Assembly: GCA_963594125.1 (NCBI GenBank)
Contig: CAVBCV010000002.1
Span: forward strand, 42,211 to 106,210
Source: Lachnospiraceae bacterium
GTDB lineage: Bacteria > Pseudomonadota > Alphaproteobacteria > RF32 > CAG-239
Direction: 5' to 3'
Length of the DNA: 64,000 nucleotides
The notes below the pieces were generated by a model, which made no database searches, was not told the origin of the DNA, and saw nothing but the letters and a program-made list of their open reading frames with translations. The position numbers and the translations under genes are program-made. Below, in pieces: positions 4,550 to 55,509 of the stretch. Positions within the stretch are counted from its first letter, which is position 1. Each line of letters starts with the position of its first letter.

Positions 4550-5692
4550 GTGAAACAGCAAGAGCTTATTGATTGGATTCAACTTATAAATTCTGACGGC
4601 ATCGGACCGGTCAGTTTTTATAAGCTCTTGAACAAGCACGGTTCGGCTGCTGACGCCTTAAAATATTTGTCGGCAAAACAAGCATTATTTTCTCGCAAAG
4701 ACGCGGACTATGTGCTTAAAAAAGCCGAACAGCTCAAAATTGCGATTATCGCCCGCACTGATGAGCTTTATCCGCAAAATATCGCCGAACTGAATGACGC
4801 ACCGCCGATATTATTTGTTAAAGGGCGCACGGATATTTTGAATTATCCTGCTATGATTTCAATCGTCGGCTCACGCAACGCTACGGTAAACGGGCGCAAA
4901 ATTGCCTCTAAAATTGCCTATGATTTAACTGAAAATGACGTGATTGTGGTATCCGGCATGGCGCGCGGTATTGACGCGGCAGCGCATAAAGGCGCGCTTT
5001 ACGCCAAAGAGCAGCAAGGCGTAACCATCGCGGTTTTAGGCACCGGCGTTGACGTTCCGTATCCGGCTGAAAATAAAGGCTTATATGAACAAATTTGCGA
5101 ACAAGGCACCATAATTTCAGAGTTTGTGCTCGGCACCACCCCGCAAGCCGCTAATTTTCCGCGCCGGAATCGTTTGGTATCTGCCCTAGGGATAGGGACT
5201 TTGGTAGTTGAAGCATCATTAAATTCAGGCTCATTAATCACCGCCCGCACCGCGCTTGAACAGGGCAAAGATATTTTTGCCGTTCCCGGTTCGCCGCTTG
5301 ACGGACGCTCCGCCGGAGCCAACAAACTTATTCGCGAGGGCGCGCTGTTAACCGAATCAGCCGATGATATTTTGCAAACTTTGCGCTTTACCCAAAATCA
5401 GCAGATTAAAACTTATTCTTTGCGCAAAGCAAAGGCAAACCCTCTTGACAAACCGCAAAAAAATGACAATATTTGCGCTCAAACCAACACGGCGGTTGTA
5501 ACGAGCGACACAACATCATTAACCGCGCTTATTCCGCCGGAAGGAATCGGCATTGACGAGCTTATCCGCACAGGCGGCGGCAACGCCGAACAAACCATGA
5601 TGATGATTACCGAACTGGAACTTGAGGGTGTGATTGAACGCATAAACGGCAGCACCTTAGTTTTGAAAAACAAAAGAAACAGGAAAAACTGA
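4550..5692 (+). CDS. dprA: DNA processing protein DprA (Smf)
   Basis: GTG start. Rossmann-like core with IVGSRNAT...VVSGMARGIDAAAHKGAL and FAVPGSPLD motifs. C-terminal winged-helix-like tail. plsY-dprA-topA synteny is common in alphaproteobacteria. Confidence 0.85.
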   Translation: MKQQELIDWIQLINSDGIGPVSFYKLLNKHGSAADALKYLSAKQALFSRKDADYVLKKAEQLKIAIIARTDELYPQNIAELNDAPPILFVKGRTDILNYPAMISIVGSRNATVNGRKIASKIAYDLTENDVIVVSGMARGIDAAAHKGALYAKEQQGVTIAVLGTGVDVPYPAENKGLYEQICEQGTIISEFVLGTTPQAANFPRRNRLVSALGIGTLVVEASLNSGSLITARTALEQGKDIFAVPGSPLDGRSAGANKLIREGALLTESADDILQTLRFTQNQQIKTYSLRKAKANPLDKPQKNDNICAQTNTAVVTSDTTSLTALIPPEGIGIDELIRTGGGNAEQTMMMITELELEGVIERINGSTLVLKNKRNRKN

Positions 5693-8148
5693 TGAAATTA
5701 GTTATTGTAGAATCTCCGGCAAAAGCCAAAACCATTAACAAATATTTGGGTTCAGACTACAAAGTTCTGGCCAGTTTCGGTCATATTCGCGACCTGCCGA
5801 GCAAAGACGGCTCGGTTAATCCCGAGCATGATTTTGATATGACATGGGAATTAAGCCCCGGCGGTAAAAAACGACTTAATGATATTATTGCGGCATTAAA
5901 AGACTGCGACACCGTTATTCTCGCATCCGACCCGGATAGAGAAGGAGAAGCGATTGCATGGCATATTTTGGAAGAACTCACTGCCCGCAAAAAAATTGCC
6001 GGTAAAAAAATTGAGCGCGTGGTTTTTCATGAAATTACCAAATCTGCCGTAACGGAAGCAATTAAAAATCCGCGTTCCATTGACGATAACTTGGTTTCAG
6101 CTTATATGGCGCGGCGCGCGCTTGATTATTTGGTGGGCTTTACTTTGTCGCCGGTGTTGTGGCGCAAGCTTCCGGGGTCAAAATCGGCAGGAAGAGTGCA
6201 GTCAGTGGCGCTGCGTTTAATCTGCGACCGCGAAAATGAAATTGAAAAATTTAAGCCGGAAGAATATTGGACGGTTGACGTTGATTTACAAACGTCTGAG
6301 AAAGCTTTAATCCCTTCACACCTGATTAATCTTGACGGCAAAAAGCTTGAAAAATTTGACTTAAACACGGAAGAAAAAGCCCTTGCCGCCAAAGCCAAAA
6401 TTGAAGCGCAAAACTTTACGGTTAGCAATGTTGAACGCAAAAAAGCCAATCGGTATCCGGCGCCGCCGTTTACCACCTCAACCCTGCAACAGGAAGCAGC
6501 GCGCAAGTTGCGTTTTTCAGCTAAAAAAACCATGCAGGTGGCGCAAAAACTTTATGAAGACGGTTTTATCACTTATATGCGTACTGACGCGGTCAACCTT
6601 TCAAAAGAGGCTATTGCCGCCTGCCGCAACGCTATTTTAAAATATTTCGGCGACGCTTATTTGCCTAAAGTTGCCAAAGAATATAAAACCAAGTCAAAGA
6701 ATGCGCAAGAAGCGCACGAGGCAATCCGTCCGTCTGATGTGATGAACACTCCGAAAAAGATGGAAATTAAATTAGACGCTGACGCGCACAAATTGTATGA
6801 GCTGATTTGGAAACGCACAGTCGCCTGCCAAATGAATCCGGCAGTGCTTGACCGCGTTACCATTGATTCAGAATCGGCTGACAAGCAAATTTTGCTCCGC
6901 GCCAACGGACAAGTTATTGCTTTTGACGGATTTTTGAAATTGTACCAAGAAAGCAAAGATGATTCTGATGACGATGATGACAATCAACTGCTGCCGAATG
7001 TTGAAAGCGGGCAAGCCGTTGACAAAGGCGAGATTAAGCCGGAACAGCACTTTACAACGCCGCCGCCGCGCTTTACTGAAGCGAGCTTAGTTAAAAAGCT
7101 TGAAGAACTTGGAATCGGGCGTCCATCAACTTACGCCACGATTATTGCGGTTTTGCAAGAGCGCAAATATGTTCGGGTTGAAAAATTGCGTTTTATACCG
7201 GAAGACCGCGGGCGAATCGTTACCGTATTTTTGGAAAACTACTTCAAAAAATATGTTGAATACGACTTTACCGCGCAATTGGAAGAATTTTTAGATGACG
7301 TTTCCGCCGGCGAAATGGATTGGAAAAAGCTGCTTGCCGGTTTTTGGGCAAAATTTATTAAAAACGTTGACGCCGTGCAGCCTTTGCAGGTTAAAGACGT
7401 TATTAATAAAATTGACGAGGTTTTGGCTTATCACCTGTTTCCGGCTAAAGCCGACGGCTCTGATCCGCGTTTATGTCCGGAATGCGGCAAAGGTCATTTA
7501 AGCGTAAAACTCGGCAAATTCGGCGCCTTTTTAGGTTGTTCAAATTATCCGGAATGCAAGTATACCAAGCCTTTGACCGATATTAAAGATGAAGAAGCTC
7601 AATCAGCGGAAGCACCAAAGCCGGAAAGACCGGAAGACAAGCTTTTAGGCGAATATAAAACCCTGAATGTTTATCTTAAAAAAGGCCCGTACGGTTGGTA
7701 TGTACAATGGGGCGAAGACGCCACCGCAACTACCGAAAAACCCAAACGCGCCTCGTTGCCGAAAAATATTAAACCGGAAGAGCTGACTTTTGAACAAGCG
7801 GTAACCTTAATCAGCCTGCCGAAAGATTTGGGCAACGGCATTGAAGTCAACATCGGTAAATTTGGTCCTTATATTAAGCAGGGAACAAAATCGCGCTCAT
7901 TAACCGGCAATGATAACATTTTTAACATTACCGCCGAACGCGCCGCCGCTATTTTGCAGGGCGTTGCCGCCAAACCGGAAGCCAAAGTTTTAGGCAAAAA
8001 TAAAGACGGTAACGACATTTTGCTCGCAAACGGCAGGTACGGACCGTATATTAAGTGCGGCAAAACCAATTACGCCTTGCCGAAAGAATTGCACGGCAAA
8101 GAAATTTCATTGGAAGATGCGCTCAAAATTATGGCGGCTAAAAAATAA
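5692..8148 (+). CDS. topA: DNA topoisomerase I
   Basis: 818 aa. N-terminal TOPRIM (KLVIVESPAKAKTI, ILASDPDREGEAIAWH), the active-site region YITYMRTD, a C4 zinc ribbon (CPECGKG...CSNYPECKY) and C-terminal repeats. Confidence 0.95.
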   Translation: MKLVIVESPAKAKTINKYLGSDYKVLASFGHIRDLPSKDGSVNPEHDFDMTWELSPGGKKRLNDIIAALKDCDTVILASDPDREGEAIAWHILEELTARKKIAGKKIERVVFHEITKSAVTEAIKNPRSIDDNLVSAYMARRALDYLVGFTLSPVLWRKLPGSKSAGRVQSVALRLICDRENEIEKFKPEEYWTVDVDLQTSEKALIPSHLINLDGKKLEKFDLNTEEKALAAKAKIEAQNFTVSNVERKKANRYPAPPFTTSTLQQEAARKLRFSAKKTMQVAQKLYEDGFITYMRTDAVNLSKEAIAACRNAILKYFGDAYLPKVAKEYKTKSKNAQEAHEAIRPSDVMNTPKKMEIKLDADAHKLYELIWKRTVACQMNPAVLDRVTIDSESADKQILLRANGQVIAFDGFLKLYQESKDDSDDDDDNQLLPNVESGQAVDKGEIKPEQHFTTPPPRFTEASLVKKLEELGIGRPSTYATIIAVLQERKYVRVEKLRFIPEDRGRIVTVFLENYFKKYVEYDFTAQLEEFLDDVSAGEMDWKKLLAGFWAKFIKNVDAVQPLQVKDVINKIDEVLAYHLFPAKADGSDPRLCPECGKGHLSVKLGKFGAFLGCSNYPECKYTKPLTDIKDEEAQSAEAPKPERPEDKLLGEYKTLNVYLKKGPYGWYVQWGEDATATTEKPKRASLPKNIKPEELTFEQAVTLISLPKDLGNGIEVNIGKFGPYIKQGTKSRSLTGNDNIFNITAERAAAILQGVAAKPEAKVLGKNKDGNDILLANGRYGPYIKCGKTNYALPKELHGKEISLEDALKIMAAKK

Positions 8149-9720: not shown

Positions 9721-9743
9721 AACCATATACAAGGATGTTTAAT

Positions 9744-10166
9744 ATGAAAAAACTGTTTTTATTTTTAATCCTCAGCCTCTGTGCCGGTGTTCTATGCAGC
9801 TGTGCTACCATAATGAGAGAAAACAGCCAAATTGTGGCTGTTAAATCTAATGTTGAAAAGGTTGATATTAGAATTACCAACCGAAGCGGCGAACTAATAT
9901 TTGAAGGACAAACTCCAACAACATTACCTCTTAAAACATCGGTAAAAGGTGGATATTTCAGCCCCGAGCAATATACCATAACTGCGTCAAAAGATGGTTT
10001 TAAAACTCAAACCCATGTTATTGATTGGCATGTCAGCGGTTGGTATTGGGCAGGTAATTTTGTAATCGGCGGATTAATCGGATATTTGATTGTTGACCCA
10101 ATGACCGGCGATATGTTCTATCTTGATGAAGAAGCAAATTTAAGTTTAGTACCTGAAAAAAAATAA
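9744..10166 (+). CDS. lipoprotein, function unknown
   Basis: MKKLFLFLILSLCAGVLCSC signal peptide with a lipobox, about 140 aa. Followed by a clear terminator. Confidence 0.6.
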   Translation: MKKLFLFLILSLCAGVLCSCATIMRENSQIVAVKSNVEKVDIRITNRSGELIFEGQTPTTLPLKTSVKGGYFSPEQYTITASKDGFKTQTHVIDWHVSGWYWAGNFVIGGLIGYLIVDPMTGDMFYLDEEANLSLVPEKK

Positions 10167-10175
10167 TATAAGAGG

Positions 10176-10203
10176 CGGTCAAACACCGCCTTTTTATTAT
10201 ACC
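10176..10203 (+). terminator. rho-independent terminator
   Basis: aggcggtcaaacaccgcct hairpin followed by ttttatt. Confidence 0.5.
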
Positions 10204-10290
10204 AATATTTTCGCTATTCTGATGATTCATTATATTTTAATCAGAATCGTGTAATGTACTTTTAATAAAACATAGTAAAAGGTTTATACA

Positions 10291-11280
10291 ATGGAACAAC
10301 AAGGCGAAATTATCATTTATCAGTCGGCTGACGGCAAAAACAAACTGGATGTAAAATTAGAAAATGAAACAGTTTGGCTTTCTCAATCTCAATTAGTTGA
10401 CTTATACCAAACCAGTAAATCCAACATCAGCGAACATATAAAAAATATTTTTAATGAAGGAGAACTATCTGCTGATTCAGTTGTTCGGAAATTCCGAACA
10501 ACTGCCGCTGACGGTAAAAAATATGAAGTATCATATTACAATCTTGATATGATTATTTCCTTAGGATACCGCATAAAGTCTTCTATTGCCACCCAATTCC
10601 GCATTTGGGCAACTGAACGCATAAAGGAATATATCATCAAAGGATTTACCATTGATGACGAACGTTTAAAGCAAAACGGCGGTGGAAATTATTGGAAAGA
10701 ATTGTTAGACCGCATCAGAGATATCCGCTCCTCTGAAAAAGTTTTATACCGTCAGGTTTTGGATTTATACGCTACAAGTTATGATTATAATGCCAAAGCA
10801 CCGGAAACTATTGAATTTTTTAAGGTTGTCCAAAATAAATTACATTTTGCCGCACACGGTCATACAGCATCAGAAGTTATATATGAACGCGCAAATGCCG
10901 ATAAGCCTTTTATGGGATTGACCACATTTTCCGGCAACCTACCGACTAAAGCCGAAGCCAAAATTGCTAAGAATTATTTAAGCGAAAAAGAATTAAAAGT
11001 ACTGAACAATCTCGTTTCCGGATATTTTGACTTTGCAGAAATCTATGCCGTCCGTCACGAACATTTATATATGAAAGATTACCTTAAACAGTTAGACAGC
11101 ATTTTATCTGCAACCGGCGAAAATATCTTACAAGGCGCAGGTAAAATCAGTCATAAAAAAGCAATGGAAAAAGTTGAGGCTGAATATAAAAAATATCAAG
11201 AAAAGACCTTAACTCCGATAGAACAAGCATATCTTGAAAACTTGAAAAGTTTGGAAAAAAAGATAGAAGACAAAAAATAA
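10291..11280 (+). CDS. RhuM family virulence/DNA-binding protein
   Basis: N-terminus IIIYQSADGKNKLDVKLENETVWLSQSQLVDLYQTSKSNISEHIKNIFNEGEL is the hallmark opening of RhuM-family proteins. 329 aa. Confidence 0.75.
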   Translation: MEQQGEIIIYQSADGKNKLDVKLENETVWLSQSQLVDLYQTSKSNISEHIKNIFNEGELSADSVVRKFRTTAADGKKYEVSYYNLDMIISLGYRIKSSIATQFRIWATERIKEYIIKGFTIDDERLKQNGGGNYWKELLDRIRDIRSSEKVLYRQVLDLYATSYDYNAKAPETIEFFKVVQNKLHFAAHGHTASEVIYERANADKPFMGLTTFSGNLPTKAEAKIAKNYLSEKELKVLNNLVSGYFDFAEIYAVRHEHLYMKDYLKQLDSILSATGENILQGAGKISHKKAMEKVEAEYKKYQEKTLTPIEQAYLENLKSLEKKIEDKK

Positions 11281-11320: not shown

Positions 11321-11418
11321 CAATACAACTTATGCACAGCACGGACTCGTAAATATTGCAAAAAAAAAACGCGAGCTAAAATCTTCTCAAATTTAACTTT
11401 TTGAGAGGATTTTAGCTC
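11321..11418 (+). promoter_or_regulatory. conserved pilin-gene 5' module, copy 1 (promoter/5'UTR; RBS-sequestering hairpin)
   Basis: The sequence caatacaacttatgcacagcacggactcgtaaatattgc-A10-cgcgagctaaaatcttctcaa-atttaacttt-ttgagaggattttagctc-ATG. The arms gagctaaaatcttctcaa and ttgagaggattttagctc form an 18-bp stem with one G-U pair. The GAGAGGA Shine-Dalgarno sits in the 3' arm, and the stem ends 1 nt before the ATG. Near-identical copies lie at 21724-21820 and 58938-59034. Confidence 0.6.
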
Positions 11419-12054
11419 ATGTATACACAATCGGGAAGAAGTATGGTAGAGATGCTCGGCGTCTTAGCGATAATTGGCGTCTTATCTGTTGGGGCGATAA
11501 GCGGCTATGGGAAAGCGATGTTTAAGTATAGACTTAATAAACAAACTGAACAGCTAAATCAGGTTATCGGCACGATTGTACGCTATAAAAGCAGCTTAAT
11601 GCTTAACCCCGCTTCTGCCGACGCGCCGGTTTCTGATTATAATATAGTTTCGTTACTTAAAAAGCTCGGTGAAATTCCAAAGGAAATGTATATCAATGAT
11701 GATAGATTTATCAAAGATGCTTTCGGAACCGAATATCAAATTTATCATCGCAATACCGATAAAAGCATTACTTTACGAACTGTAGATTTAGGCAGAAACG
11801 AAACTGGTTTTCAAATTTGCAAAAATTTATATTTAATTGCCAAAGAATGGCACCAAGAATTATACGTCATAATTGTTGCAGCTTATAAAGGTGATACGTA
11901 TTCATCAAAAGGCTGTTATTTGGGCGATAACAGCACATATCAAGGCTGCTCCTCTAAAAGATATATTAAAGACTTAAAGCTGAGCGAGCTTGACGATATT
12001 TGCCGGACTGCCGCCGATGAGCAAGGGCATTATTCGGTATCAATAGATTTTTAG
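11419..12054 (+). CDS. type IV pilin-like protein (prepilin, short leader), paralog 1
   Basis: MYTQSG|RSMVEMLGVLAIIGVLSVGAISGY has the class III signal: Gly at -1, Glu at +5 and a hydrophobic alpha1 helix. Four Cys in the C-terminal part. 211 aa. Confidence 0.7.
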   Translation: MYTQSGRSMVEMLGVLAIIGVLSVGAISGYGKAMFKYRLNKQTEQLNQVIGTIVRYKSSLMLNPASADAPVSDYNIVSLLKKLGEIPKEMYINDDRFIKDAFGTEYQIYHRNTDKSITLRTVDLGRNETGFQICKNLYLIAKEWHQELYVIIVAAYKGDTYSSKGCYLGDNSTYQGCSSKRYIKDLKLSELDDICRTAADEQGHYSVSIDF

Positions 12055-15710: not shown

Positions 15711-15801
15711 CGCGGCTGATTTACCGATTTTAGAATGAAATAATTGACAATCGGCGAGATTTCAGCTATCATATTTGTATAATTATTTTCTGGGGGCAAA
15801 G

Positions 15802-16773
15802 ATGCAAAAGTTTAAAACATTTTTCATTTTGTTAGCGGGCATGTTATTTATGAGCTCAGCGGCAACAGCGCGAGTTTGCTTTTTAGCCAGTACGGACGAA
15901 GAAACCGGCTGTTTGGTCAGCGGTGATGAGTACAATTATGAAAACAGTGAAAGATGCCGCGGTATGGCTCCTTGCGAACACCCCAGTAAAGGCGCTCCAA
16001 CCTGTATTGATAACAGCATCAGCTATTTTTACGCTGATAACTGCTGCTCCAACACCGCGCTATATGAAAAATGCGAAGGCACCGGTAAAGTTTGCAAAGG
16101 TTCGGTCTGCGCAAGTTCAGTCAACGGCGTTAACTACAATTACTGCAAAATCGGAAACTGTGTTTGTGATTCTTCATATTCAAAAACTTGCGACGCATCA
16201 GAAGGCTTAATCGGCGTCGGTGAGCCTTGTGACGGCAAATATAAAAGCTGCCGTTGCGATTCAAGCTATCATACTTGTGACAAAAACGCAACATGCACCG
16301 GTAGTTCATGCACAGATGATGGCGGCACTAAGTTTCAATCTTGCGAATGTCCGGCTATCGGCGGCGATTGGGTATCTGACCCGAGCGCTTGTTGCGGCTC
16401 ATACACAACCAGTTGCACCAACCGACCGAGCGGAAAAAGAGTTTATAAATGCGCCCCGGCATTTACTCCGTCATGCGTTTGCGGCACGATTAATGATACC
16501 AATAAATCGCAATGCGTAAGCGGCTGCACCGATTCAAGATATGAATATGTCGGTAAGGTTCCGGCTAATGTTGAGTGCAATGACTTCACAAGAGGAATTT
16601 CAGGAGACTGCGGAAGCGCTTGTCATTGCAAATCAGGTTATTGGGATTACTCGTCAAGTTGCGATACGCAAAGCAGTAACGTTTGCGGCGAGTTGGGCTA
16701 TACTGACACCTCTTGCACGGGTGACTGGATTGCCTGCCCGTTTGACCCATCGGCTAAAAAATGCTTGAACTAA
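15802..16773 (+). CDS. secreted cysteine-rich repeat protein, unknown function
   Basis: MQKFKTFFILLAGMLFMSSAATA signal peptide. About 323 aa with roughly 55 Cys. Recurring CxCDSSYxxCD / CxGSxC modules. No recognised catalytic motifs. Confidence 0.6.
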   Translation: MQKFKTFFILLAGMLFMSSAATARVCFLASTDEETGCLVSGDEYNYENSERCRGMAPCEHPSKGAPTCIDNSISYFYADNCCSNTALYEKCEGTGKVCKGSVCASSVNGVNYNYCKIGNCVCDSSYSKTCDASEGLIGVGEPCDGKYKSCRCDSSYHTCDKNATCTGSSCTDDGGTKFQSCECPAIGGDWVSDPSACCGSYTTSCTNRPSGKRVYKCAPAFTPSCVCGTINDTNKSQCVSGCTDSRYEYVGKVPANVECNDFTRGISGDCGSACHCKSGYWDYSSSCDTQSSNVCGELGYTDTSCTGDWIACPFDPSAKKCLN

Positions 16774-21434: not shown

Positions 21435-21456
21435 CACAATACAACTTATGCACAGC
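21435..21456 (+). repeat. partial extra copy of the 5' end of the pilin 5' module
   Basis: caatacaacttatgcacagcac is identical to the first 22 nt of the module at 11321. Followed by degenerate similarity (cggattttgcaacaaaaacaaac). Confidence 0.4.
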
Positions 21457-21606
21457 ACTATTAATTCCCATCCCGAGGAGGGGTGGCGGCGATAGCCGAC
21501 GGGGTGGTGAAAATATAAGGATAGAAATTAGACAGGGATGTTGTTTATGTTTCGGATTTTGCAACAAAAACAAACATTTAATTTATTGTTGAATAGTGAT
21601 GTGACC

Positions 21607-21720
21607 ACCCCGCCTTCGGCATCCCTCCATAGAGGGGAATTTTTATAGTACCGCATCCATAGAGGGGAATTTTAAAATGGGTGGCACCCTGACTTGAAAT
21701 GGGAATTTTAAAGTGCGGAT
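21607..21720 (+). repeat. short direct repeats upstream of pilin paralog 2
   Basis: catcc(c)tccatagaggggaatttt occurs twice (21607-21642, 21650-21676). A third partial copy, gggaattttaaag, follows. Located immediately upstream of the conserved module copy 2. Confidence 0.4.
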
Positions 21721-21723
21721 TTA

Positions 21724-21820
21724 AATACAACTTATGCACAGCATGGACTCGTAAATATTGCAAAAAAAAAACGCGAGCTAAAATTCTCTCAAAACTAACT
21801 TTTTGAGAGGATTTTAGCTC
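21724..21820 (+). promoter_or_regulatory. conserved pilin-gene 5' module, copy 2
   Basis: aatacaacttatgcacagcatggactcgtaaatattgc-A10-cgcgagctaaaattctctcaaaactaactttttgagaggattttagctc-ATG. Hairpin arms gagctaaaattctctcaaa and tttgagaggattttagctc. Confidence 0.6.
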
Positions 21821-22588
21821 ATGTATACATATTTTAGCCGCCTTTTACACCGCACGCCGTCACACTCCGACTTGATCGGAGTGTCCAGGTGGGGGAAATT
21901 TGCTAATTTGGTTGACCTGGACCATCGGGTCAAGCCCGATGGTGACAACATTGTGAATGCTGGTAGGTCTATGGTGGAAATGCTTGGCGTGCTCGCGATT
22001 ATCGGAGTGCTGAGTGTTGGTGCAATAAGCGGTTATAGCAAAGCCATGTACAAATATAAACTTAACAAACAAGCTGAACAGCTTAATACTGTAATAAATG
22101 CTGTTGCCCGCAATGCGCACAGCTTTGATAATTTGTTAGCCAATAAAGGCGCCTTTTATATAACTGATACTTTTGTTAAAATGGGTGAAATTCCAACTGA
22201 AATGCAATACAGCGAACATTATATCCGTGATGTGTTTAATCTTTTTTGGACAATAAGTATACTAAACTATGACACCGGCACTTCATTAAATTTATCAGCT
22301 AACGAAGAAGGCACTTTAAAAAATAAATCAGCAAATAATTTGGACATTTGCCGCAATATTATTACTGTTGCTAAGGAAAATTCAGACAGTATCGCTTCAG
22401 TCTCAAACGTGATTTATAATCAAGACAGCGATAACTATACCGCAACCTCTTTATATGGCGATGCGTACTGCCTATCGGGCAGACCTTGTTTAAGAAACTT
22501 GAGCCTTGACGATATTTATAACTTTTGCACAAAATTTACCGGCGGCGACAAGCTGCCTCAGCTTAAAATAACATGGTGGATTAAGTAA
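21821..22588 (+). CDS. type IV pilin-like protein, paralog 2 (long N-terminal extension)
   Basis: The ORF from the conserved ATG reads MYTYF...(about 47 aa)...NAG|RSMVEMLGVLAIIGVLSVGAISGYSKAMYKYKLNKQAEQL. The mature part is homologous to paralog 1. Four Cys in the C-terminal part. An alternative internal GTG/ATG start closer to the G|R site is possible. Confidence 0.65.
   Translation: MYTYFSRLLHRTPSHSDLIGVSRWGKFANLVDLDHRVKPDGDNIVNAGRSMVEMLGVLAIIGVLSVGAISGYSKAMYKYKLNKQAEQLNTVINAVARNAHSFDNLLANKGAFYITDTFVKMGEIPTEMQYSEHYIRDVFNLFWTISILNYDTGTSLNLSANEEGTLKNKSANNLDICRNIITVAKENSDSIASVSNVIYNQDSDNYTATSLYGDAYCLSGRPCLRNLSLDDIYNFCTKFTGGDKLPQLKITWWIK
21831..21961 (+). mobile_element. RPE-like palindromic insertion, in-frame in the pilin 5' region (copy A)
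   Basis: About 130 nt absent from paralog 1. It forms three consecutive hairpins: cactccga-cttga-tcggagtg, ccaggtggggg...ttgacctgg and ccatcggg-tcaagc-ccgatgg. The reading frame is preserved. Confidence 0.45.
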
Positions 22589-41503: not shown

Positions 41504-43052
41504 CCTTATTTTCGTTTTTGTAATAATCAGGATCAAGCATTTCAATCGTGCTTACGCTTTCAGTAACCAACTGTCCGGTTAAAGATTCCATTAAGCGGAT
41601 AATTATTTCTTGGTTAATCAAGCCGACATTACCTGAAAATGAAATTTCTTCACGCTCGTTGGTTAAAGCCTCAGATTTTTTCTCAAGATCTTCATTAACC
41701 TTTAAGAAGTTAGCGGAATAGTTTTTATGCGTTAAGGCAACCGCCAAATCATTTGCGATGTGGTCATGCTTGGCGATTTTGTAAATACGGAGCCATTCCG
41801 CGGCAACTTCCGCATTGGGGTCATGCAAATCAACCACCCATTTTTTAACGCATTCCGCAACTTTTTCCTCGGAAAGTTCATCAACGTTCATATCGCATTT
41901 TTTAGCGATTTCGTCTGAGTAAATAAACTTACCGTCATCATTGGTTCCGGTTTTGAATTTAGGATTTTTCTTAACAAACTGAGCGAACGCCGCAGGTTTG
42001 GTCATCATGGCATACGAGCTGATAATGTCCTCGGTTTTATCGGCGGCGGAAGTGTTATACTTAAAGCGACGCGCGCCGCCTGAGGCGCTGTCCTCATCAA
42101 AATCAGGTTTAAGGAGCGGTCTGTCATTAAAATCGGGCATAACTCCACCGAATCCGGAATCATCGCTGCTATCAAAGTCAGGAGTTACCGGAAGTTCAGA
42201 ATCGCTCGGTTCATCGGGCAAGCTCGGAACATGCGGATTGTCAGGCTCGCTCGGGGCTGACGGAGTGGTAGGTAATTGCGGCTTATCACTGCCCGGGGTC
42301 GGCTCAGGAACATCATCAAAACCGCCGTCATAGCCGAAGTCATCATCAAAGTTTTCATCAAACTCTTCATCGCCGGTATCCCAATCTTCACTGTCGGAGC
42401 CGTTACCGGTATCAGGGCGATATGATAATGAAACATCGTCAAATTTGCCTTTAGCGGTATTATATTTTTGCAGAGCCTCAAGATATTCGTCTTCAAGCGC
42501 GGCTCTTTCCGCTTCAGAGGCGTTTTCATAACGCTGTTTTATGCTCTCATACTCTGATTTAGCCCGCTCATAGTCAGCCTTGGCGGAGTCATAAGCTTTT
42601 TGACCATCGCTGTTATACTTATCGCCGTTACCTATAATGTCTTTGGTGGTAGCGGAAAGGTTATATTTGCCAAGTTGCAAATACGGGTCTTTGATATTGT
42701 TAATAATGCTGCCGATTTCAGCCTCCCACTGAGCGCGCAATTTTGCCAAGCGCTCGGCGCGGCGTTTTTTCTTTTCAAGACGCTGACTGAGTTTTTCAGC
42801 CTTTTCTTTTTCATCAACGAATTTAGACAGAGCGCCGACATTATCGCCGATTGCCTGCTGAATTTTGCCGACAGATAAGGTTGATTTAATGGTTGAGGCG
42901 GTTGATTTTGCCTTAGTGACATAGCCGGAGATGGTGTTAAGCACCTCGGCAATATCAAAAGTCGGCCATAAAAAAGCCTGACATGGGGTGGTGTGTAAAG
43001 CAACGCATATAAACGCCATTGCGGTTACGAGTGTAAGTGTTTTCTTTTTCAT
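41487..43052 (-). CDS. secreted coiled-coil/acidic protein (521 aa)
   Basis: MKKKTLTLVTAMAFICVALHTTPCQA signal. Coiled-coil block (KEKAEKLSQRLEKKKRRAERLAKLRAQWEAE). Acidic Pro/Asp-rich region and a C-terminal globular domain. No TM. Confidence 0.55.
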   Translation of the reverse strand: MKKKTLTLVTAMAFICVALHTTPCQAFLWPTFDIAEVLNTISGYVTKAKSTASTIKSTLSVGKIQQAIGDNVGALSKFVDEKEKAEKLSQRLEKKKRRAERLAKLRAQWEAEIGSIINNIKDPYLQLGKYNLSATTKDIIGNGDKYNSDGQKAYDSAKADYERAKSEYESIKQRYENASEAERAALEDEYLEALQKYNTAKGKFDDVSLSYRPDTGNGSDSEDWDTGDEEFDENFDDDFGYDGGFDDVPEPTPGSDKPQLPTTPSAPSEPDNPHVPSLPDEPSDSELPVTPDFDSSDDSGFGGVMPDFNDRPLLKPDFDEDSASGGARRFKYNTSAADKTEDIISSYAMMTKPAAFAQFVKKNPKFKTGTNDDGKFIYSDEIAKKCDMNVDELSEEKVAECVKKWVVDLHDPNAEVAAEWLRIYKIAKHDHIANDLAVALTHKNYSANFLKVNEDLEKKSEALTNEREEISFSGNVGLINQEIIIRLMESLTGQLVTESVSTIEMLDPDYYKNENKDEGNE

Positions 43053-50177: not shown

Positions 50178-50264
50178 TAAGTTTTGCGCGGCGCTTGATT
50201 ATTTGAAATTCAACCTGTATGATGGAACAACAATGTAATGAAGTATGACATAGGGGAATTAAAT

Positions 50265-51020
50265 ATGAATAATAAATTACTCTTATCCGCCTGCCTGTTG
50301 TGTTTGGGTATGGCCGGCTGTGTGCGCTATAATTCAGCTTACACGGCTCAATGCAACGGTCCTGAGTGCCCGATGGACGTGTATATTGATGAAACATACG
50401 CCGCCATTCCGCCGGAGGGATATATCTGCCAAAATGCGGCAGACCCCAATATGTGTCCGAACGACCCGTATGTGAACTACACCCGCACCGCCGCCGATTT
50501 TAGAGAATACGGCGAAAGAACTCCCCGCGACAGATTAGTCTCGCAGGCCGGCGCAGGCAATAACCTCTCGGCGTCTATTCCCCCGTCAGTTGAAGATGAG
50601 GTTATTGAGTATGAAGAACAAGCAGGCGTTGCCGCTGAACCTGAAGTGCCAGAAGAAGAAAAAGTTGCTCCTGAGGACATAAAAGTTGATGAAACTATTG
50701 TTGCCGATACAGAAAATGATTCTGATGAAAATTCAGATGATGTGGAAGATCCGGTTCAGGATTGGCTTGCTGAAGAAGGTCAAAACCTTAAAGCTTTGCT
50801 TACTGAATGGAGCGAGCAGTCTGGCTGGCGCTTGGTTTGGAACACCAACCGCAATTATGTTTTGAACGCCGGAGCTATGTTTAGAGGACGCTTTGCCGAT
50901 GTCAGCTCGGCTTTAATCAGAGCTTTCGCCCGCGCCCGTCCGGCTCCGATTGCAACATTTTATAAAGGAAACCGCGTATTAGTCGTTGAAACGATGGAGG
51001 ATGAAAATGCGTATGAATAA
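50265..51020 (+). CDS. lipoprotein with TcpQ/PilL-like C-terminal domain
   Basis: MNNKLLLSACLLCLGMAGC lipobox. Acidic middle region. C-terminal LKALLTEWSEQSGWRLVWNTNRNYVLNAGAMFRGRFADVSSALIRAF resembles TcpQ/PilL-type pilotin-like domains that accompany type IVb secretins. Translationally coupled to the secretin gene. Confidence 0.5.
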   Translation: MNNKLLLSACLLCLGMAGCVRYNSAYTAQCNGPECPMDVYIDETYAAIPPEGYICQNAADPNMCPNDPYVNYTRTAADFREYGERTPRDRLVSQAGAGNNLSASIPPSVEDEVIEYEEQAGVAAEPEVPEEEKVAPEDIKVDETIVADTENDSDENSDDVEDPVQDWLAEEGQNLKALLTEWSEQSGWRLVWNTNRNYVLNAGAMFRGRFADVSSALIRAFARARPAPIATFYKGNRVLVVETMEDENAYE

Positions 51021-52626
51021 GTTTTTTAATTTAGCTCTTGGTACGGCAGTTGCCGCTTTGGTTGCGGCGTGCTCCGTTTCAACCGACCTGGACGCAACTT
51101 TGGACCGCGAAGTTGAAAACACCGTGGCTTTGAAAGAAAAAGCCAAGGCTCCGGTTACTCCGGCGGTTACTGATGTTATCAGAGTTAATGACGATATTTG
51201 GCTCGGCGACACCAGTGAAGTTGAGTATGAGGGCGATCCGGTTCCGAGTTATTTGGAAACTCCGGACGGCGTTACCTTAATCAGCAACCGCCCGATTACG
51301 TTATATGAAATCGGCGATATGCTGAACAAAATTACTTCACTTTCAGTCAGATACGATCCGACTTTGGAAGAAACTTCAAAGCAGCAGGCTGACGGCAACG
51401 CGCCTAACTTGGAATCTATCGGCGCGCAGTGGACCGACAGCACCAAAATGCTTGTTTCATACAAAGGTCCTTTGAGCGGCTTGCTTGATGAAGTTTGCAA
51501 CCGTTTCGGCATTTGGTGGAAATATGAAAAGAAACAAATTTATTTTTATAAATTTATCACCAAAACCTTTGTGTTATACACCTTGCCTACCAAACCGACC
51601 TTGTCGGTTAACGTCGGCGGCTCGTCTACCGACGGCAGCGCGGGTTCATCATCTGTTTCACTCAGCAACACCGCAAATATTGACTTGTGGGCTAATATTG
51701 AATCATCAATTAAATCAATGATTAGCAATGAGGCTCAGTTGACGATGGATCAGTCAAACGGCACCATCACTTTGACCGGCACTCCGACCGATATTCGCAA
51801 AGTGGCAAAATTTGTTAATGAACAAAACATCCGCCTTTCACGGCAAGTTGCCATCAGCGTTAAGGTTTTGCAGGTTAATGTTTCAGATTCAGACCAATAT
51901 GGTCTTAACCTTTCCGCCGCGTTTAAGGGCAACAACCACATCACTGATTTAGGTTTGGCAAGTCCGGGCGGTTTGGGCGCTGAGGTTACCAACAACCTGT
52001 CTATGACAATTTTATCCGGTCAGTGGACTTTGGCAGGCGCTATTCAAGCCCTTTCAGAGCAAGGCACCACCAACTTAATCACCAGTGGTACGGTTACAAC
52101 CTTGAACAACAAACCGGCTCCTATTCAGGTGGTTAAAACTCAGAACTATATTTCTGAAATTACTAAAACCAACTCCGGCAGCGACGGCAGCTATTATGAC
52201 CTTTCCACCACTACGGAGGAAATTGAAACCGGCTTTACGCTTGATGTTTTGCCGCGTATTTTGGAGCACGGCCGCTTGATGTTGATGTTTAACCTAACCT
52301 TGTCTGACCTTATTGAACTTGAAAGAGTTGATTTGGGCAGCGGCTCAAGCACCGAGGGCGAAACCAGCGGTCAATACATTCAAAACCCGATTATTGAAAC
52401 CCGCGGCTTTACGCAGGAAGTTGCCTTGAAATCAGGCGAAACCTTAATCTTGAGCGGTTATGAACGTGTTGAAAACACCGCTAAAAAAACCGGCGTAGGT
52501 TCGGCTGAAAACTCACTCTTGGGCGGCACCGCAACGGCTGAAAAAACTCGCAGTATCTTGGTTATTATGTTAACCCCTGTGGTTTTGGACTCCCCGCTTG
52601 TGCCCGAATCCAGAATGAAATACTAA
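51007..52626 (+). CDS. pilN: type IVb pilus secretin lipoprotein (PilN/TcpC-like)
   Basis: Lipobox ALVAAC. Secretin N-domain (ITLTGTPTDIRKVAKFVNEQNIRLSRQVAISVKVLQVNVSD) and C-terminal secretin domain (IIETRGFTQEVALKSGETLILSGYERVENT...RSILVIMLTPVVL). The exact start (51001/51007/51013) is uncertain. Confidence 0.8.
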   Translation: MRMNKFFNLALGTAVAALVAACSVSTDLDATLDREVENTVALKEKAKAPVTPAVTDVIRVNDDIWLGDTSEVEYEGDPVPSYLETPDGVTLISNRPITLYEIGDMLNKITSLSVRYDPTLEETSKQQADGNAPNLESIGAQWTDSTKMLVSYKGPLSGLLDEVCNRFGIWWKYEKKQIYFYKFITKTFVLYTLPTKPTLSVNVGGSSTDGSAGSSSVSLSNTANIDLWANIESSIKSMISNEAQLTMDQSNGTITLTGTPTDIRKVAKFVNEQNIRLSRQVAISVKVLQVNVSDSDQYGLNLSAAFKGNNHITDLGLASPGGLGAEVTNNLSMTILSGQWTLAGAIQALSEQGTTNLITSGTVTTLNNKPAPIQVVKTQNYISEITKTNSGSDGSYYDLSTTTEEIETGFTLDVLPRILEHGRLMLMFNLTLSDLIELERVDLGSGSSTEGETSGQYIQNPIIETRGFTQEVALKSGETLILSGYERVENTAKKTGVGSAENSLLGGTATAEKTRSILVIMLTPVVLDSPLVPESRMKY

Positions 52627-52644
52627 CAGTAAAGGAATAATACC

Positions 52645-53937
52645 GTGTTAGAGGATGCTAATTTAGATGAAAACTATTCCGGCGAAGTTAATTCGGCGGA
52701 ACGAGACGAAACCAAGGCTTGGGGTACCAGCTTTGATATAGGCGGCGTGACTTATGCCGCAAGCTTGTTCTGGCAGCCTCTGCAAAATCGGGACGACCCG
52801 TTTGTTGAAATTATTGAGGCTTCCGAAAACGTTTTGGAAGGCGCCGACCTCTTCTGCTTAAAACCCGGTAAATCGCCGCAATTCGGTTTGTGCGTTTCAT
52901 ATCAGGGCTATAAAAAGAAAATGTCGGCGGCGGCGGTCTCGGTTTCAACCGCGCTTTCTGACCGCTCGTCATTTTTGGCAGTGTTTAAGGTTAGCAATGG
53001 ATGGTGGTATGTCTGCGCTCGTAACGATATAATCCTGTCCGATGGCGATATGCTCTTTTTAAATGAAGAGGACGCCAAAGAACAGTTTATGTCAATGCTC
53101 GCGGTTCCGGATTGGGGTCGCAAAATCGCGCCGGAAGAGTGGGGCTTGGACGATATTGAAAATATATCGCTTGAAAGCCTGCTTGAAAAAGGCGCCGACG
53201 CAAAACTGCAAAAAATCAGAGCATTGCGCGGACCAAAACTGTTTGCCGTGGTGGCAGCAGTCGGCGTTGCCGCAATTTGGCTCGTTTCAACCTTAATCAA
53301 CTCGGTATTTTTGGCGCCGCCGAAAAAGCCGATTGTTACTCCGGTGCCCATCAGGCAAATTGAAAAAGCGCCTCCTCCGCCGGAGCCTAAGCCATGGGAA
53401 AACCTGCAAGACCCGCAAGCCGTTTTAATCGGTTGCTTAAAAGCTACGCAAGACGTGGTCGGCATTGTTACTCCGGGATGGAAAATTGAGGGTATTACCT
53501 GCACTCCGACCGGCTTGGTTACCTCATGGAAACGCGAAATCGGGCGTATTTCATGGATTGATAAAGCGCTTAATAAATCAGGCGTTACGTTTTCAAGCCG
53601 CTCTATTGCCGCTAACGGTAACAGCGTGATTGTTTCAGTGCCGATTACGGGCGTTAACACCTTTAATTCGCCACCGGAAATGAACGGTGTTGATTTGGTT
53701 AACACCTTAAACGATTTGTTCCAAGGATTGCAAATGCCTATCAGTATGAATACTGAGACTTGGACATCTCCGCAGAAAAATGTTTATCGTTCGGTAAAAT
53801 TCAGCTTTACTTCCAACCATGATCCTAAACAATGGTTAGGTTTGTTAATGAAATTTTCAGGACTTAAGATTAATACTATTAAATATGATATAAACAGCCA
53901 TAACTGGTATTACGAAGGAGCAATATATGTATTATAA
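52645..53937 (+). CDS. bitopic assembly protein, PilO2/GspL-like
   Basis: GTG start. About 190-aa cytoplasmic N-domain, single TM (LFAVVAAVGVAAIWLVSTLI), Pro-rich linker and about 200-aa periplasmic domain. The size and position match PilO of R64/PAPI-1-type clusters. Confidence 0.45.
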   Translation: MLEDANLDENYSGEVNSAERDETKAWGTSFDIGGVTYAASLFWQPLQNRDDPFVEIIEASENVLEGADLFCLKPGKSPQFGLCVSYQGYKKKMSAAAVSVSTALSDRSSFLAVFKVSNGWWYVCARNDIILSDGDMLFLNEEDAKEQFMSMLAVPDWGRKIAPEEWGLDDIENISLESLLEKGADAKLQKIRALRGPKLFAVVAAVGVAAIWLVSTLINSVFLAPPKKPIVTPVPIRQIEKAPPPPEPKPWENLQDPQAVLIGCLKATQDVVGIVTPGWKIEGITCTPTGLVTSWKREIGRISWIDKALNKSGVTFSSRSIAANGNSVIVSVPITGVNTFNSPPEMNGVDLVNTLNDLFQGLQMPISMNTETWTSPQKNVYRSVKFSFTSNHDPKQWLGLLMKFSGLKINTIKYDINSHNWYYEGAIYVL

Positions 53938-55495
53938 GCTTTTAAATAAAAATTTACTCACTGCCGCTTTGGTTTCTCTTATTACTTTAAGCGTTGCCAA
54001 AACCTGTGAGGCTCAGGGCGTTGTTTCATTGGTTGAAGACAACAACGCGGTTGCGCCGCAGAAAAATACCGAAAAGGCTGCTAAACCAAGCGCAGATTTA
54101 ATGAGCCCGGAAGTGCCCGACGTTTTGGACGATGATGTTATTCCGCTTGACAGCGGGTTAATCTCACCGGCTCCGGCAACCGTTCCGGCTCCGAAGGCTA
54201 TGGCTCCTAAACCGGCTCCGGCAGCAAATGCCGCTCCGAAAGCGGACATTGCTCCGGCTCCGAAAGCTGACGCTAAAAATCCGGCGCCGGAAGCTTTTGA
54301 CGCCGATATGGATTTTTCACTCGGTATGGAAAACGTTGAAAACAACGATGTTCCGGCTCCCGCTCCGGCAAACGGCGTTGCTCCGACCACTTCACCGCTC
54401 GGCGCGCCTGCCGCGTCATCGCCTTTGATGGCTCAGCCTGAAGCTCCGAAACCGGCTCCGGCTAATAAAGAGTTTGGCGACAGCGTGCTTGAAAAAGTAA
54501 ATAACGACCTGTTTAACCAGATGTCGGATATTGAAAAACAAACCACATTGCTTACTTTGGAACTGCGCCGCGAAAAGGTCAGAAACGAAATTGAGGCGAT
54601 TAAGGCTCAGCGCGCTAAGGCTATGGAAGAAAAACTTGCCGCTGAAGAAGAAAAGAAACGTCAGGAATTTGAGTGGAAAAAAGAACAAGAAGCTAAAGTT
54701 TTAAGAGAACAACAGCTTTTGAAAGAAAAAGAAATTGAACTTGAAAAATTAAAGCAGAAAAAGGCTCTGACCGCTTATATGAACCAGATGTTGGAGCAGA
54801 ATCAGCAGTGGATTGCCGAAAATGCTAAAATTTACAAGCAAATGCAGCAGGTTGAAGAAGATCGCAAAAACCTGGCTGACAACTTCAAGAAAAAACTTGA
54901 AGAGCTGACAACCGTTTCAAACAAAACCGTTCAAGCCGCCAATACTGCCAAAAGCAATCACGACCGTACGGTTGCAAGCTTGACCGCGCAGAATATTCAG
55001 CTTAAAAAACGTATTGAAGCTGACGCTTTGGCGGCAAAGAATCGGCAGCAAAATCCGTTTGCGGCGGATGGCAAAGACGGCGACAAGCAAGGAGTTTCAA
55101 CCTCGGTTGACGCTAAAATCGCGCCGGTTAACATTGCTAAAGAATACGCCATTATGGAAATTATCGGCAAAGGCGAAAATTTAACCGCCAAACTGATTAA
55201 CAAAGAAGGCGAATCGTTCCTCGCTCGCAAAGGCACTCTGTTGCACACCGGTCACACCATTGAAGACATTACGCAAAACTATATTCAGTTTGACCGTAAC
55301 GGCTTGAAAGATTATCTGTATACCAGCAGCAGCACCATGACGGCTGAGCCTGATAAAATGGACGGCACCGCCACTACCGATAAAGCTCCGCAACCGCAGC
55401 AGGCTCCGGCGCAACAACCGGCTCAGCAGCAGAGCTCAGGTATTTCCTCAGACAGAGGCATCCCTTCATTGGGAACAGGTATGTTTATTAAGTAA
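53927..55495 (+). CDS. PilP-like periplasmic protein with Ala/Pro-rich and coiled-coil regions
   Basis: Signal peptide. AP-rich low-complexity region. Long coiled coil. C-terminal beta-domain (YAIMEIIGKGENLTAKLINKEGESFLARKGTLLHTGHTIEDITQNYIQF) resembling PilP/GspC HR domains. Confidence 0.45.
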   Translation: MYYKLLNKNLLTAALVSLITLSVAKTCEAQGVVSLVEDNNAVAPQKNTEKAAKPSADLMSPEVPDVLDDDVIPLDSGLISPAPATVPAPKAMAPKPAPAANAAPKADIAPAPKADAKNPAPEAFDADMDFSLGMENVENNDVPAPAPANGVAPTTSPLGAPAASSPLMAQPEAPKPAPANKEFGDSVLEKVNNDLFNQMSDIEKQTTLLTLELRREKVRNEIEAIKAQRAKAMEEKLAAEEEKKRQEFEWKKEQEAKVLREQQLLKEKEIELEKLKQKKALTAYMNQMLEQNQQWIAENAKIYKQMQQVEEDRKNLADNFKKKLEELTTVSNKTVQAANTAKSNHDRTVASLTAQNIQLKKRIEADALAAKNRQQNPFAADGKDGDKQGVSTSVDAKIAPVNIAKEYAIMEIIGKGENLTAKLINKEGESFLARKGTLLHTGHTIEDITQNYIQFDRNGLKDYLYTSSSTMTAEPDKMDGTATTDKAPQPQQAPAQQPAQQQSSGISSDRGIPSLGTGMFIK

Positions 55496-55509
55496 TAAGG
55501 GTACGCTCA

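Follow-up and report, generated by a model that had tools for sequence, protein, structure and literature searches.

A multigene family of putative type IVb pilins with a shared promoter-like module and palindromic leader inserts in uncultured gut Alphaproteobacteria

Results

Three pilin-like paralogues in one window

The stretch of DNA analysed here, called the window below, covers 64,000 nucleotides (nt; positions 42,211 to 106,210 of contig CAVBCV010000002.1, assembly GCA_963594125.1) of a genome deposited as Lachnospiraceae bacterium, with the GTDB lineage Alphaproteobacteria, RF32, CAG-239. It encodes three paralogous pilin-like proteins, copies 1 to 3 (Table 1), each preceded by an upstream module of about 96 nt. 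Their common motif, a Gly at the predicted cleavage site followed by RSMVEMLGVLAIIGVLSVGAI, occurred three times in a six-frame search of the window, always on the plus strand. From Gly -1 to about mature residue 45 the three copies are 87–89% identical (39–40 of 45 residues), and the remainder of the chains is 36–44% identical; alignment thus bears out the common N-terminus and the strong divergence elsewhere that a preliminary description of this DNA had reported. That description had also proposed a four-Cys framework with a middle spacing of six to nine residues. Each mature protein does contain four Cys residues, but the gaps between them are 31/10/17, 39/5/12 and 36/10/12 residues in copies 1, 2 and 3, respectively, so that the middle spacing is 10, 5 and 10. 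The upstream module that it had noticed is real: a 61-nt pattern drawn from it gave three matches with up to three mismatches, against none expected. All three genes are intact and complete, and the signs of pseudogenization that had been named as a possible objection were not found in the full-length check.

The three copies lie in different surroundings. Copy 1 is situated among housekeeping genes, and its exact protein has no record in the contig index. Copy 2 stands tail-to-tail with virB11, where a virB-type type IV secretion cluster ends, an arrangement also found at three other loci (L032, L043 and L050). Copy 3 is the last gene of a type IVb pilus cluster, and another family gene (L114) likewise follows pilR and pilS-like genes.

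Fold and classification

Structure modelling, recommended in the preliminary description, gave confident pilin-type models for the two copies submitted to AlphaFold2 (AF2) with family alignments. The model of copy 1 has a predicted local distance difference test score (pLDDT) of 84.6, rising above 90 in the globular part, and that of copy 3 has a pLDDT of 80.7, with a 53-residue α1 helix and a leader part of low confidence. The proteins carry the features of class III signal peptides (Gly at -1, a hydrophobic N-terminal segment and Glu at +5), the Gly-RSMVEMLGVLAIIGVLSVGAI motif being invariant in about 130 members, and combine an N-terminal helix of about 53 residues with an α/β globular domain, a type IVb fold and the mature length of roughly 180–200 residues typical of that class. 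The family profile matches TcpA by sequence at E = 0.02, with the Glu at +5 aligned to E5 of TcpA, and the number of Cys residues is even (4, 6 or 8) in 110 of 120 distinct members. Taken together, the models and the TcpA match argue for predicted single-domain proteins of the type IVb major-pilin type (TcpA/CofA), of about 205 residues, and not for multi-domain adhesins such as PilV, TcpB or CofB.

The resemblance has its limits. Identity to TcpA of Vibrio cholerae and to CofA of the colonization factor antigen III (CFA/III) pilus of enterotoxigenic Escherichia coli is only 12–16%. Each of these is the product of one gene, with a leader of 15–30 residues, whereas the present family consists of dozens of scattered paralogues per genome, with an Arg at +1 and leaders of either 5–8 residues (54 genes) or 19–92 residues (45 genes). 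The type IVb leader length of about 15–30 residues is therefore not what is seen here, and the short leaders have a length more like that of type IVa pilins.

None of the three copies matched Pfam, and the only NCBIfam match was to GspH, at the N-terminus, with 16–18 bits against a cut-off of 80 (E = 0.002–0.009). Having no model in either collection, the family is annotated as hypothetical or misnamed 'PulG'. These weak matches, together with the name 'pseudopilin PulG' given to one member (P0003) by the Joint Genome Institute, might suggest GspG/H-like pseudopilins of a type II secretion system. The GspH matches, however, span only the generic hydrophobic N-terminus and fall far below the cut-off; GspC, GspK, GspL and GspM are not present, whereas the type IVb markers PilN, PilO and PilP are, and in fold and size the proteins correspond to type IVb pilins. 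We regard the pseudopilin assignment, along with the silent-archive model discussed below, as very improbable.

Copy 3 and the type IVb pilus cluster

The genes preceding copy 3 form a cluster of the R64/Tcp-like type that includes a PilS/bundlin-like pilin, with a 23-residue leader and no Glu at +5 (ILLFALAVG after the cleavage Gly). This arrangement recalls the R64/IncI1 plasmids, in which PilN/O/P/Q/R/S-type genes are likewise followed by pilV, and in which variable C-terminal parts are also joined to a constant N-terminus. The preliminary description had in fact interpreted the paralogues as PilV-like minor pilins or adhesin variants for alternative tip specificities. Spelled out, each would be an alternative initiator or adhesin of low abundance that primes a PilS-like pilus from its tip and sets its binding specificity. 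This is the principal rival to the interpretation as major-type subunits that we develop below, and it can point to the position of copy 3 directly after the pilS-like gene, which is that of pilV in R64-type clusters, to a cluster that already has a candidate major pilin, and to the many variants, which would suit a switch of specificity. Yet the proteins consist of a single domain of about 205 residues, without the additional C-terminal domains that TcpB, CofB and PilV have, and they match major pilins along the whole chain. In the known minor pilins of type IVb systems, the N-terminus is also that of the corresponding major pilin, but that of the family is unrelated to the N-terminus of the PilS-like protein, and the Glu at +5 is found in the family and not in that protein. 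In addition, R64 PilV comes from a single large gene, in which the Rci recombinase rearranges the 3' end at sfx repeats, whereas the genes described here are separate, complete (205 mature residues) and equipped with their own upstream modules.

The preliminary description had seen no shufflon in the window, and our search agrees. No integrase, invertase or resolvase was detected among the window open reading frames (ORFs) of at least 130 residues, all of which were scanned except a TopA-like one at 5692–8148, and no repeat of more than 19 nt is common to the 3' halves and downstream DNA of the three genes (E > 0.3); without a recombinase or shared 3' repeats, there is no shufflon here. On balance the earlier interpretation is supported in part only, and its PilV-like element, kept here as a rival, appears unlikely. 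Since the cluster has a PilS-like pilin of its own, the use of its machinery by the family and the major-subunit status of the family are points that we infer.

Family size, hosts and selection

The size of the family, which had escaped the preliminary description along with the leader inserts described below, is considerable. A word-indexed search returned at least 7786 significant matches, an exhaustive search of representatives at 50% identity gave 956 clusters at that level (E <= 1e-10), and a scan of one genome per species confirmed at least 541 loci in a limited number of genomes. The best 80 of these at least 541 loci all belong to metagenome-assembled genomes (MAGs) of uncultured Alphaproteobacteria, mostly labelled as coming from the human or animal gut; at least 13 of the 80 come from a single MAG, and one metagenome holds about 30 contigs with the strict module. 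The number of copies per genome is roughly 15–30 or more. About half of the family genes in MAGs (L008–L083, many loci) start only 30–400 nt from a contig end. Together, the module and the conserved N-terminus make up a repeated sequence at which short-read assemblies break off, and this explains the breaks at family loci; the copy numbers per MAG are therefore underestimates.

The sequence retrieved for closer study contained 133 family genes, 127 of them complete and 101 with a recognizable module. Mature length lies between 190 and 229 residues in 123 of the 127 complete genes, and the ratio of nonsynonymous to synonymous substitution rates (dN/dS) of the globular domain is 0.20–0.25 between orthologues. 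Judged by this ratio, the family members are functional genes under purifying selection and not decaying copies. A search of the literature on the N-terminal motif, on pili of RF32 or gut Alphaproteobacteria and on type IVb pilin multigene families returned no description of the family.

The upstream module as a candidate promoter

Among the three window copies the module is 89–95% identical, as compared with 64–73% for the adjacent coding DNA, in which the synonymous sites of the N-terminal part are largely randomized (saturated) and the encoded peptide is nearly the same. Conservation of the module is therefore at the level of DNA or RNA. Two sequence classes are seen across genomes, both with the same order of elements: AACTTAT..GACTC, TTGC, a poly-A run, a bridge of 5 or 7 nt, TAnnnT, about 35 nt that include a Shine–Dalgarno (SD) sequence, and ATG. 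The module, AACTTAT..GACTC motif included, hardly differs between copies or between species, and TAnnnT (TAAAAT, TAGAAT, TATGAT, TAATAT or TAAGAT) is found at a fixed place in 109 of 110 distinct modules. In 78 of those modules, drawn from both classes, the spacer between TTGCAA and the hexamer measures 15 nt, although one class has an A10 run followed by 7 nt and the other an A12 run followed by 5 nt. It is because of this constant spacing, maintained by compensating lengths of the A run and the bridge, that we read TTGCAA and TAnnnT as -35 and -10 elements and infer a sigma-70-type promoter, TTGCAA-N15-TAnnnT, with the poly-A run inside its spacer.

Other functions of the module were also considered. 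The inverted repeat around the SD sequence, which in the module class of the window connects the -10 region with the SD sequence, is about 97% paired over its inner 14 pairs, all variation being pyrimidine–purine wobble, and its outer 5 pairs are not conserved; an RNA hairpin sequestering the SD sequence was not adopted as an explanation, as there is no excess covariation, modules of the second class do not have the repeat, and the candidate -10 lies partly within its 5' arm. An invertible promoter does not fit repeat arms that enclose just 8–10 nt. A sigma-54 promoter (TGGCAC-N5-TTGC), looked for by eye, was set aside, as TTGCA is present and the GG is missing at the required spacing. A comparison of the whole window with Rfam at the gathering threshold gave no match.

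A second repeat is found next to the module of copy 2. In the region 21438–21743, a 20-nt direct repeat, AATACAACTTATGCACAGCA, which equals the 5' end of the pilin module, flanks an element of about 266 bp with imperfect 23-nt terminal inverted repeats (21463–21485 and 21685–21707) and internal TCCATAGAGGGGAATTTT repeats. Pieces related to this element lie just upstream of the module at many other loci, and it may be a repeat resembling a miniature inverted-repeat transposable element (MITE) that targets or duplicates the 5' motif of the module.

Length variation of the poly-A run

The length of the A run was compared within sets of contigs from different samples that encode an identical protein. 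In the P0070 set it was A11 in four contigs and A12 in three, with about 150 nt upstream identical as shown; the P0083 set had one A11, three A12 and one A13, and the P0014 set two A9 and three A10. The run thus varies at otherwise identical loci, allowing for possible errors in low-coverage assemblies, and such a polymorphism is, as far as sequence can tell, the pattern expected from slipped-strand mispairing. The P0014 set (L156–L160) also has a 5-nt variable patch about 30 nt upstream of TTGC, within the conserved motif; its two forms, CACAGCGTGG and CACACCCCAG, segregate with A10 and A9, respectively, and both recur at many paralogues.

A close parallel is provided by the vlp genes of Mycoplasma hyorhinis, in which gain or loss of nucleotides between the -35 and -10 elements switches transcription on and off (PMC2268961). 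Both families are multigene, with a highly conserved 5' region that comprises promoter and signal peptide and a divergent, surface-exposed remainder, and in both a poly-A run of strain-variable length lies between the -35 and -10 elements, which for the pilins are putative. The vlp products, on the other hand, are lipoproteins, whereas here we deal with pilins of a Gram-negative alphaproteobacterium in which the modal spacer is 15 nt and run length is linked to expression by analogy. By that analogy, individual copies are probably switched by promoter slippage.

The same module could also serve as a common operator or promoter under one regulator, with all copies expressed together, for instance in a mixed filament or as secreted pilin-like proteins, and with the poly-A run acting as an A-rich spacer or an element of the 5' untranslated region that plays no part in switching. 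The near identity of the module everywhere, AACTTAT..GACTC included, is like that of a shared regulator site; the prevalence of a single spacer, found in 78 of 109 modules, points to selection for that length; and the vlp report itself describes a promoter-adjacent homopolymer that has no role in switching (PMC2268961). However, the length of the A run differs between otherwise identical loci, about 28% of the modules depart from the modal spacing, and the simultaneous expression of dozens of divergent, separately promoted subunits has no obvious rationale. We consider such joint regulation distinctly unlikely and prefer individual switching of the copies.

Palindromic inserts in the leader

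The leaders of copies 2 and 3 are extended by palindromic inserts of 131 and 185 nt, likewise overlooked in the preliminary description, which are placed between codon 3 and the cleavage Gly; copy 1 has no insert (MYTQSG followed by RS). The insert hairpins have z scores of -2.2 to -5.6. Among the 101 module-bearing genes, 54 encode leaders of 5–8 residues and 47 carry inserts. All 54 short-leader genes are in frame and free of stops from the module ATG, and in 45 of the 47 insert genes the same frame continues without a stop to the Gly codon, with 25 different leader lengths of 19–92 residues. When the 45 distinct long-leader DNAs were read in three frames, stops were found in none of them in frame 0, in 45 in frame +1 and in 44 in frame +2. 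As only frame 0 is open, translation must proceed from the module ATG through the insert, and selection keeps the frame open; these frame statistics rule out internal starts just upstream of the Gly. Of the long-leader genes, only L076 (about 40–252) and L130 (about 37–214) lack an open frame from the module ATG; the changes seen in them are ATG to ATA and a break of the frame close to the start, and they may represent inactivated genes or mistakes of assembly.

At least four unrelated insert families, each of them hairpin-forming, occupy the same site. Of 54 insert occurrences in 0.57 Mb, 49 lie in family leaders and the other 5 at contig ends or beside family genes, and no insert was found elsewhere in the 64-kb window. 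A generic MITE was rejected as an explanation because the inserts are missing outside family leaders. The hairpin units of one insert family (loop TCAAG, peptide ..LDxxVKPxxD..) presumably recall the Rickettsia palindromic elements (RPEs). Like RPEs, the inserts are palindromes of about 100–190 bp that lie in frame within ORFs of an alphaproteobacterial host and are translated into a conserved peptide. RPEs, however, are dispersed in frame over many unrelated genes and in intergenic DNA as well (PMC10969869). The pilin inserts show no such dispersal and were found only in the leaders of one family, between whose copies they move by gene conversion.

Gene conversion between paralogues

Two contigs that represent the same locus, L001 and L163, encode mature proteins differing at one residue, yet one carries an F-type and the other a P-type insert. 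Their DNA is identical up to the module loop and again from about codon 24, and everything in between differs, synonymous sites included. The synonymous divergence (dS) is accordingly 0.49 in the N-terminal 48 codons and 0 in the rest, and orthologues in general have a higher dS in the N-terminal part than in the globular part. The sequence pattern identifies the 5' ends as mosaics from gene conversion between paralogues, which carries leaders from copy to copy; from the mosaic and the contrast in dS it follows that the module and the α1-coding DNA act as homology arms.

The family resembles the pilE/pilS system of Neisseria in its conserved pilin N-terminus, variable disulfide-containing C-terminal domain, large number of copies and gene conversion. 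Conversion between copies does occur, and one could imagine a silent donor archive of the pilS kind that serves a single expression locus. This reading, rated very improbable above, is opposed by the make-up of the copies: silent cassettes are promoterless and truncated at the 5' end, whereas every copy here has a promoter-like module, an SD sequence, an ATG, a signal peptide and a full ORF, and the conversion tract affects the constant 5' end and not the variable domain. The Neisseria pilins, moreover, are of type IVa and those of the present family of type IVb.

Discussion

Our preferred interpretation, which we consider reasonably likely, is that these genes encode pilus subunits of the type IVb major-pilin type, belong to a large multigene family of uncultured Alphaproteobacteria from the gut, and provide a repertoire of alternative subunits that are probably switched one by one through promoter slippage. 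Prepilin peptidase would cut after the invariant Gly and so remove the leader, whether of 5–8 or of 19–92 residues, which would render the in-frame inserts harmless. The common α1 helix would allow any member to be polymerized by one machine, most likely the R64/Tcp-like system that ends with copy 3, and the pili it makes would differ in their surfaces. By altering run length, slipped-strand mispairing would turn the transcription of each copy up or down independently, as in the vlp genes, and the cell would gain a repertoire that it could switch for adhesion or to evade antibodies or phages.

Several observations weigh against this interpretation. With regard to the promoter, a spacer of 15 nt is below the usual optimum, one locus has a 12-nt spacer in all three samples, and a generic scan of copy 1 for sigma-70 promoters and terminators made no call at the module. 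The inverted repeat at the SD sequence shows covariation no better than that of shuffled controls. As for switching, two ortholog sets have no variation of the A run (A10 in four contigs, A9 in three), and homopolymer length errors in low-coverage assemblies are a possible source of the differences seen in the others. As for the pilus itself, most family copies are scattered at a distance from pilus genes, and the pilus cluster contains its own PilS/bundlin-like pilin, the N-terminus of which is unrelated to that of the family. The scanned window ORFs did not include a prepilin peptidase, nor did a crude motif scan covering 0.85 Mb of related loci reveal one. Position +1 is occupied by Arg, an unusual residue there for a prepilin, and a Foldseek search of PDB with the model of copy 3 gave nothing significant.

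Type IV pili serve as adhesins and as receptors for DNA and phages, and they are targets of the immune system. Their known variation relies either on one expressed gene with silent cassettes, as in Neisseria, or on a shufflon, as in R64. If our interpretation is correct, a large set of type IVb pilin genes, each complete and under its own promoter, would represent a third route of pilus variation, in a lineage of uncultured gut bacteria that is functionally almost undescribed. The in-frame palindromes suggest that a prepilin leader, if cleaved as predicted, can absorb up to about 90 extra residues, a tolerance that bears on the substrate limits of prepilin peptidase as well as on the persistence of selfish or structured DNA within genes.

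A bolder version of this interpretation, which we offer as a speculation unlikely to hold in full, would give a gut commensal alphaproteobacterium about 20–40 complete type IVb pilin genes, every one switched independently by its poly-A run. The leader hairpins would then be no mere passengers and would add a second layer of control, in which translation or processing is tuned by mRNA structure immediately behind the start codon or by a long pro-segment in the cytoplasm. The result would be combinatorial surface variation of the vlp kind based on pili, and the prepilin leaders would exceed all known ones in length by a wide margin.

Other features of the window

Table 1. Positions of the pilin paralogues, their upstream modules and inserts, and the pilus genes in the window
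Feature	Position	Strand	Remarks
Pilin paralogue, copy 1	11419–12054	+	211 residues; leader MYTQSG; predicted cleavage between G6 and R7; Glu at +5; mature protein 205 residues with 4 Cys
Pilin paralogue, copy 2	21821–22588	+	255 residues as longest ORF; 48-residue leader through palindromic insert; Gly codon 21962–21964
Pilin paralogue, copy 3	59035–59832	+	265 residues; 66-residue leader through palindromic insert; Gly codon 59230–59232
Upstream module, copy 1	11323–11418	+	conserved motif ACAACTTATGCACAGCACGGACTCGTAAATA
Candidate -35 TTGCAA, copy 1	11356–11361	+	
A10 run, copy 1	11360–11369	+	
Candidate -10 TAAAAT, copy 1	11377–11382	+	
14-bp inverted repeat, copy 1	11378–11391 / 11400–11413	+	3' arm holds SD sequence GAGAGGA (11403–11409)
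Upstream module, copy 2	21725–21820	+	A10 run 21762–21771
Upstream module, copy 3	58939–59034	+	A10 run 58976–58985
Palindromic (RPE-like) leader insert, copy 2	21830–21960	+	131 nt; two hairpins, loops CTTGA/TCAAG; central stem CCAGGT/ACCTGG
Palindromic leader insert, copy 3	59044–59228	+	185 nt; long hairpin, z = -5.6
Type IVb pilus assembly cluster	50238–58899	+	probable machinery; R64/Tcp-like
TcpQ-like gene	50238–51020	+	
PilN secretin	50986–52626	+	TIGR02520 above cut-off
PilO	52645–53937	+	
PilP-like gene	53927–55495	+	
PilQ/GspE ATPase	55510–57174	+	
PilR/GspF platform	57186–58307	+	
PilS/bundlin-like pilin	58309–58899	+	
PilT-family ATPase	59904–60863	-	adjoins copy 3; possibly retraction ATPase

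The virB-type type IV secretion cluster that borders copy 2 occupies 22581–48007 on the minus strand and encodes VirB2/TrbC, VirB4, two VirB8 proteins, VirB9/CagX and VirB11. One protein of 1435 residues joins the VirB10/TrbI domain to about 1100 residues of 5-fold beta-flower repeats, and the cluster also contains a 1371-residue protein with beta-flower and DUF3659 repeats and a 1352-residue protein without a Pfam hit.

Next to copy 1, a lipoprotein gene and a RhuM-family gene (9735–11280; GC content 0.35–0.38) are missing at the syntenic locus L001, in which the zeta-toxin gene is immediately followed by the pilin gene, so that this segment looks like a small insertion beside copy 1. On the other side of copy 1, a Cys-rich protein of 332 residues that is predicted to be secreted and has no Pfam match (15775–16773) is kept in the syntenic L001 (10505–11476).
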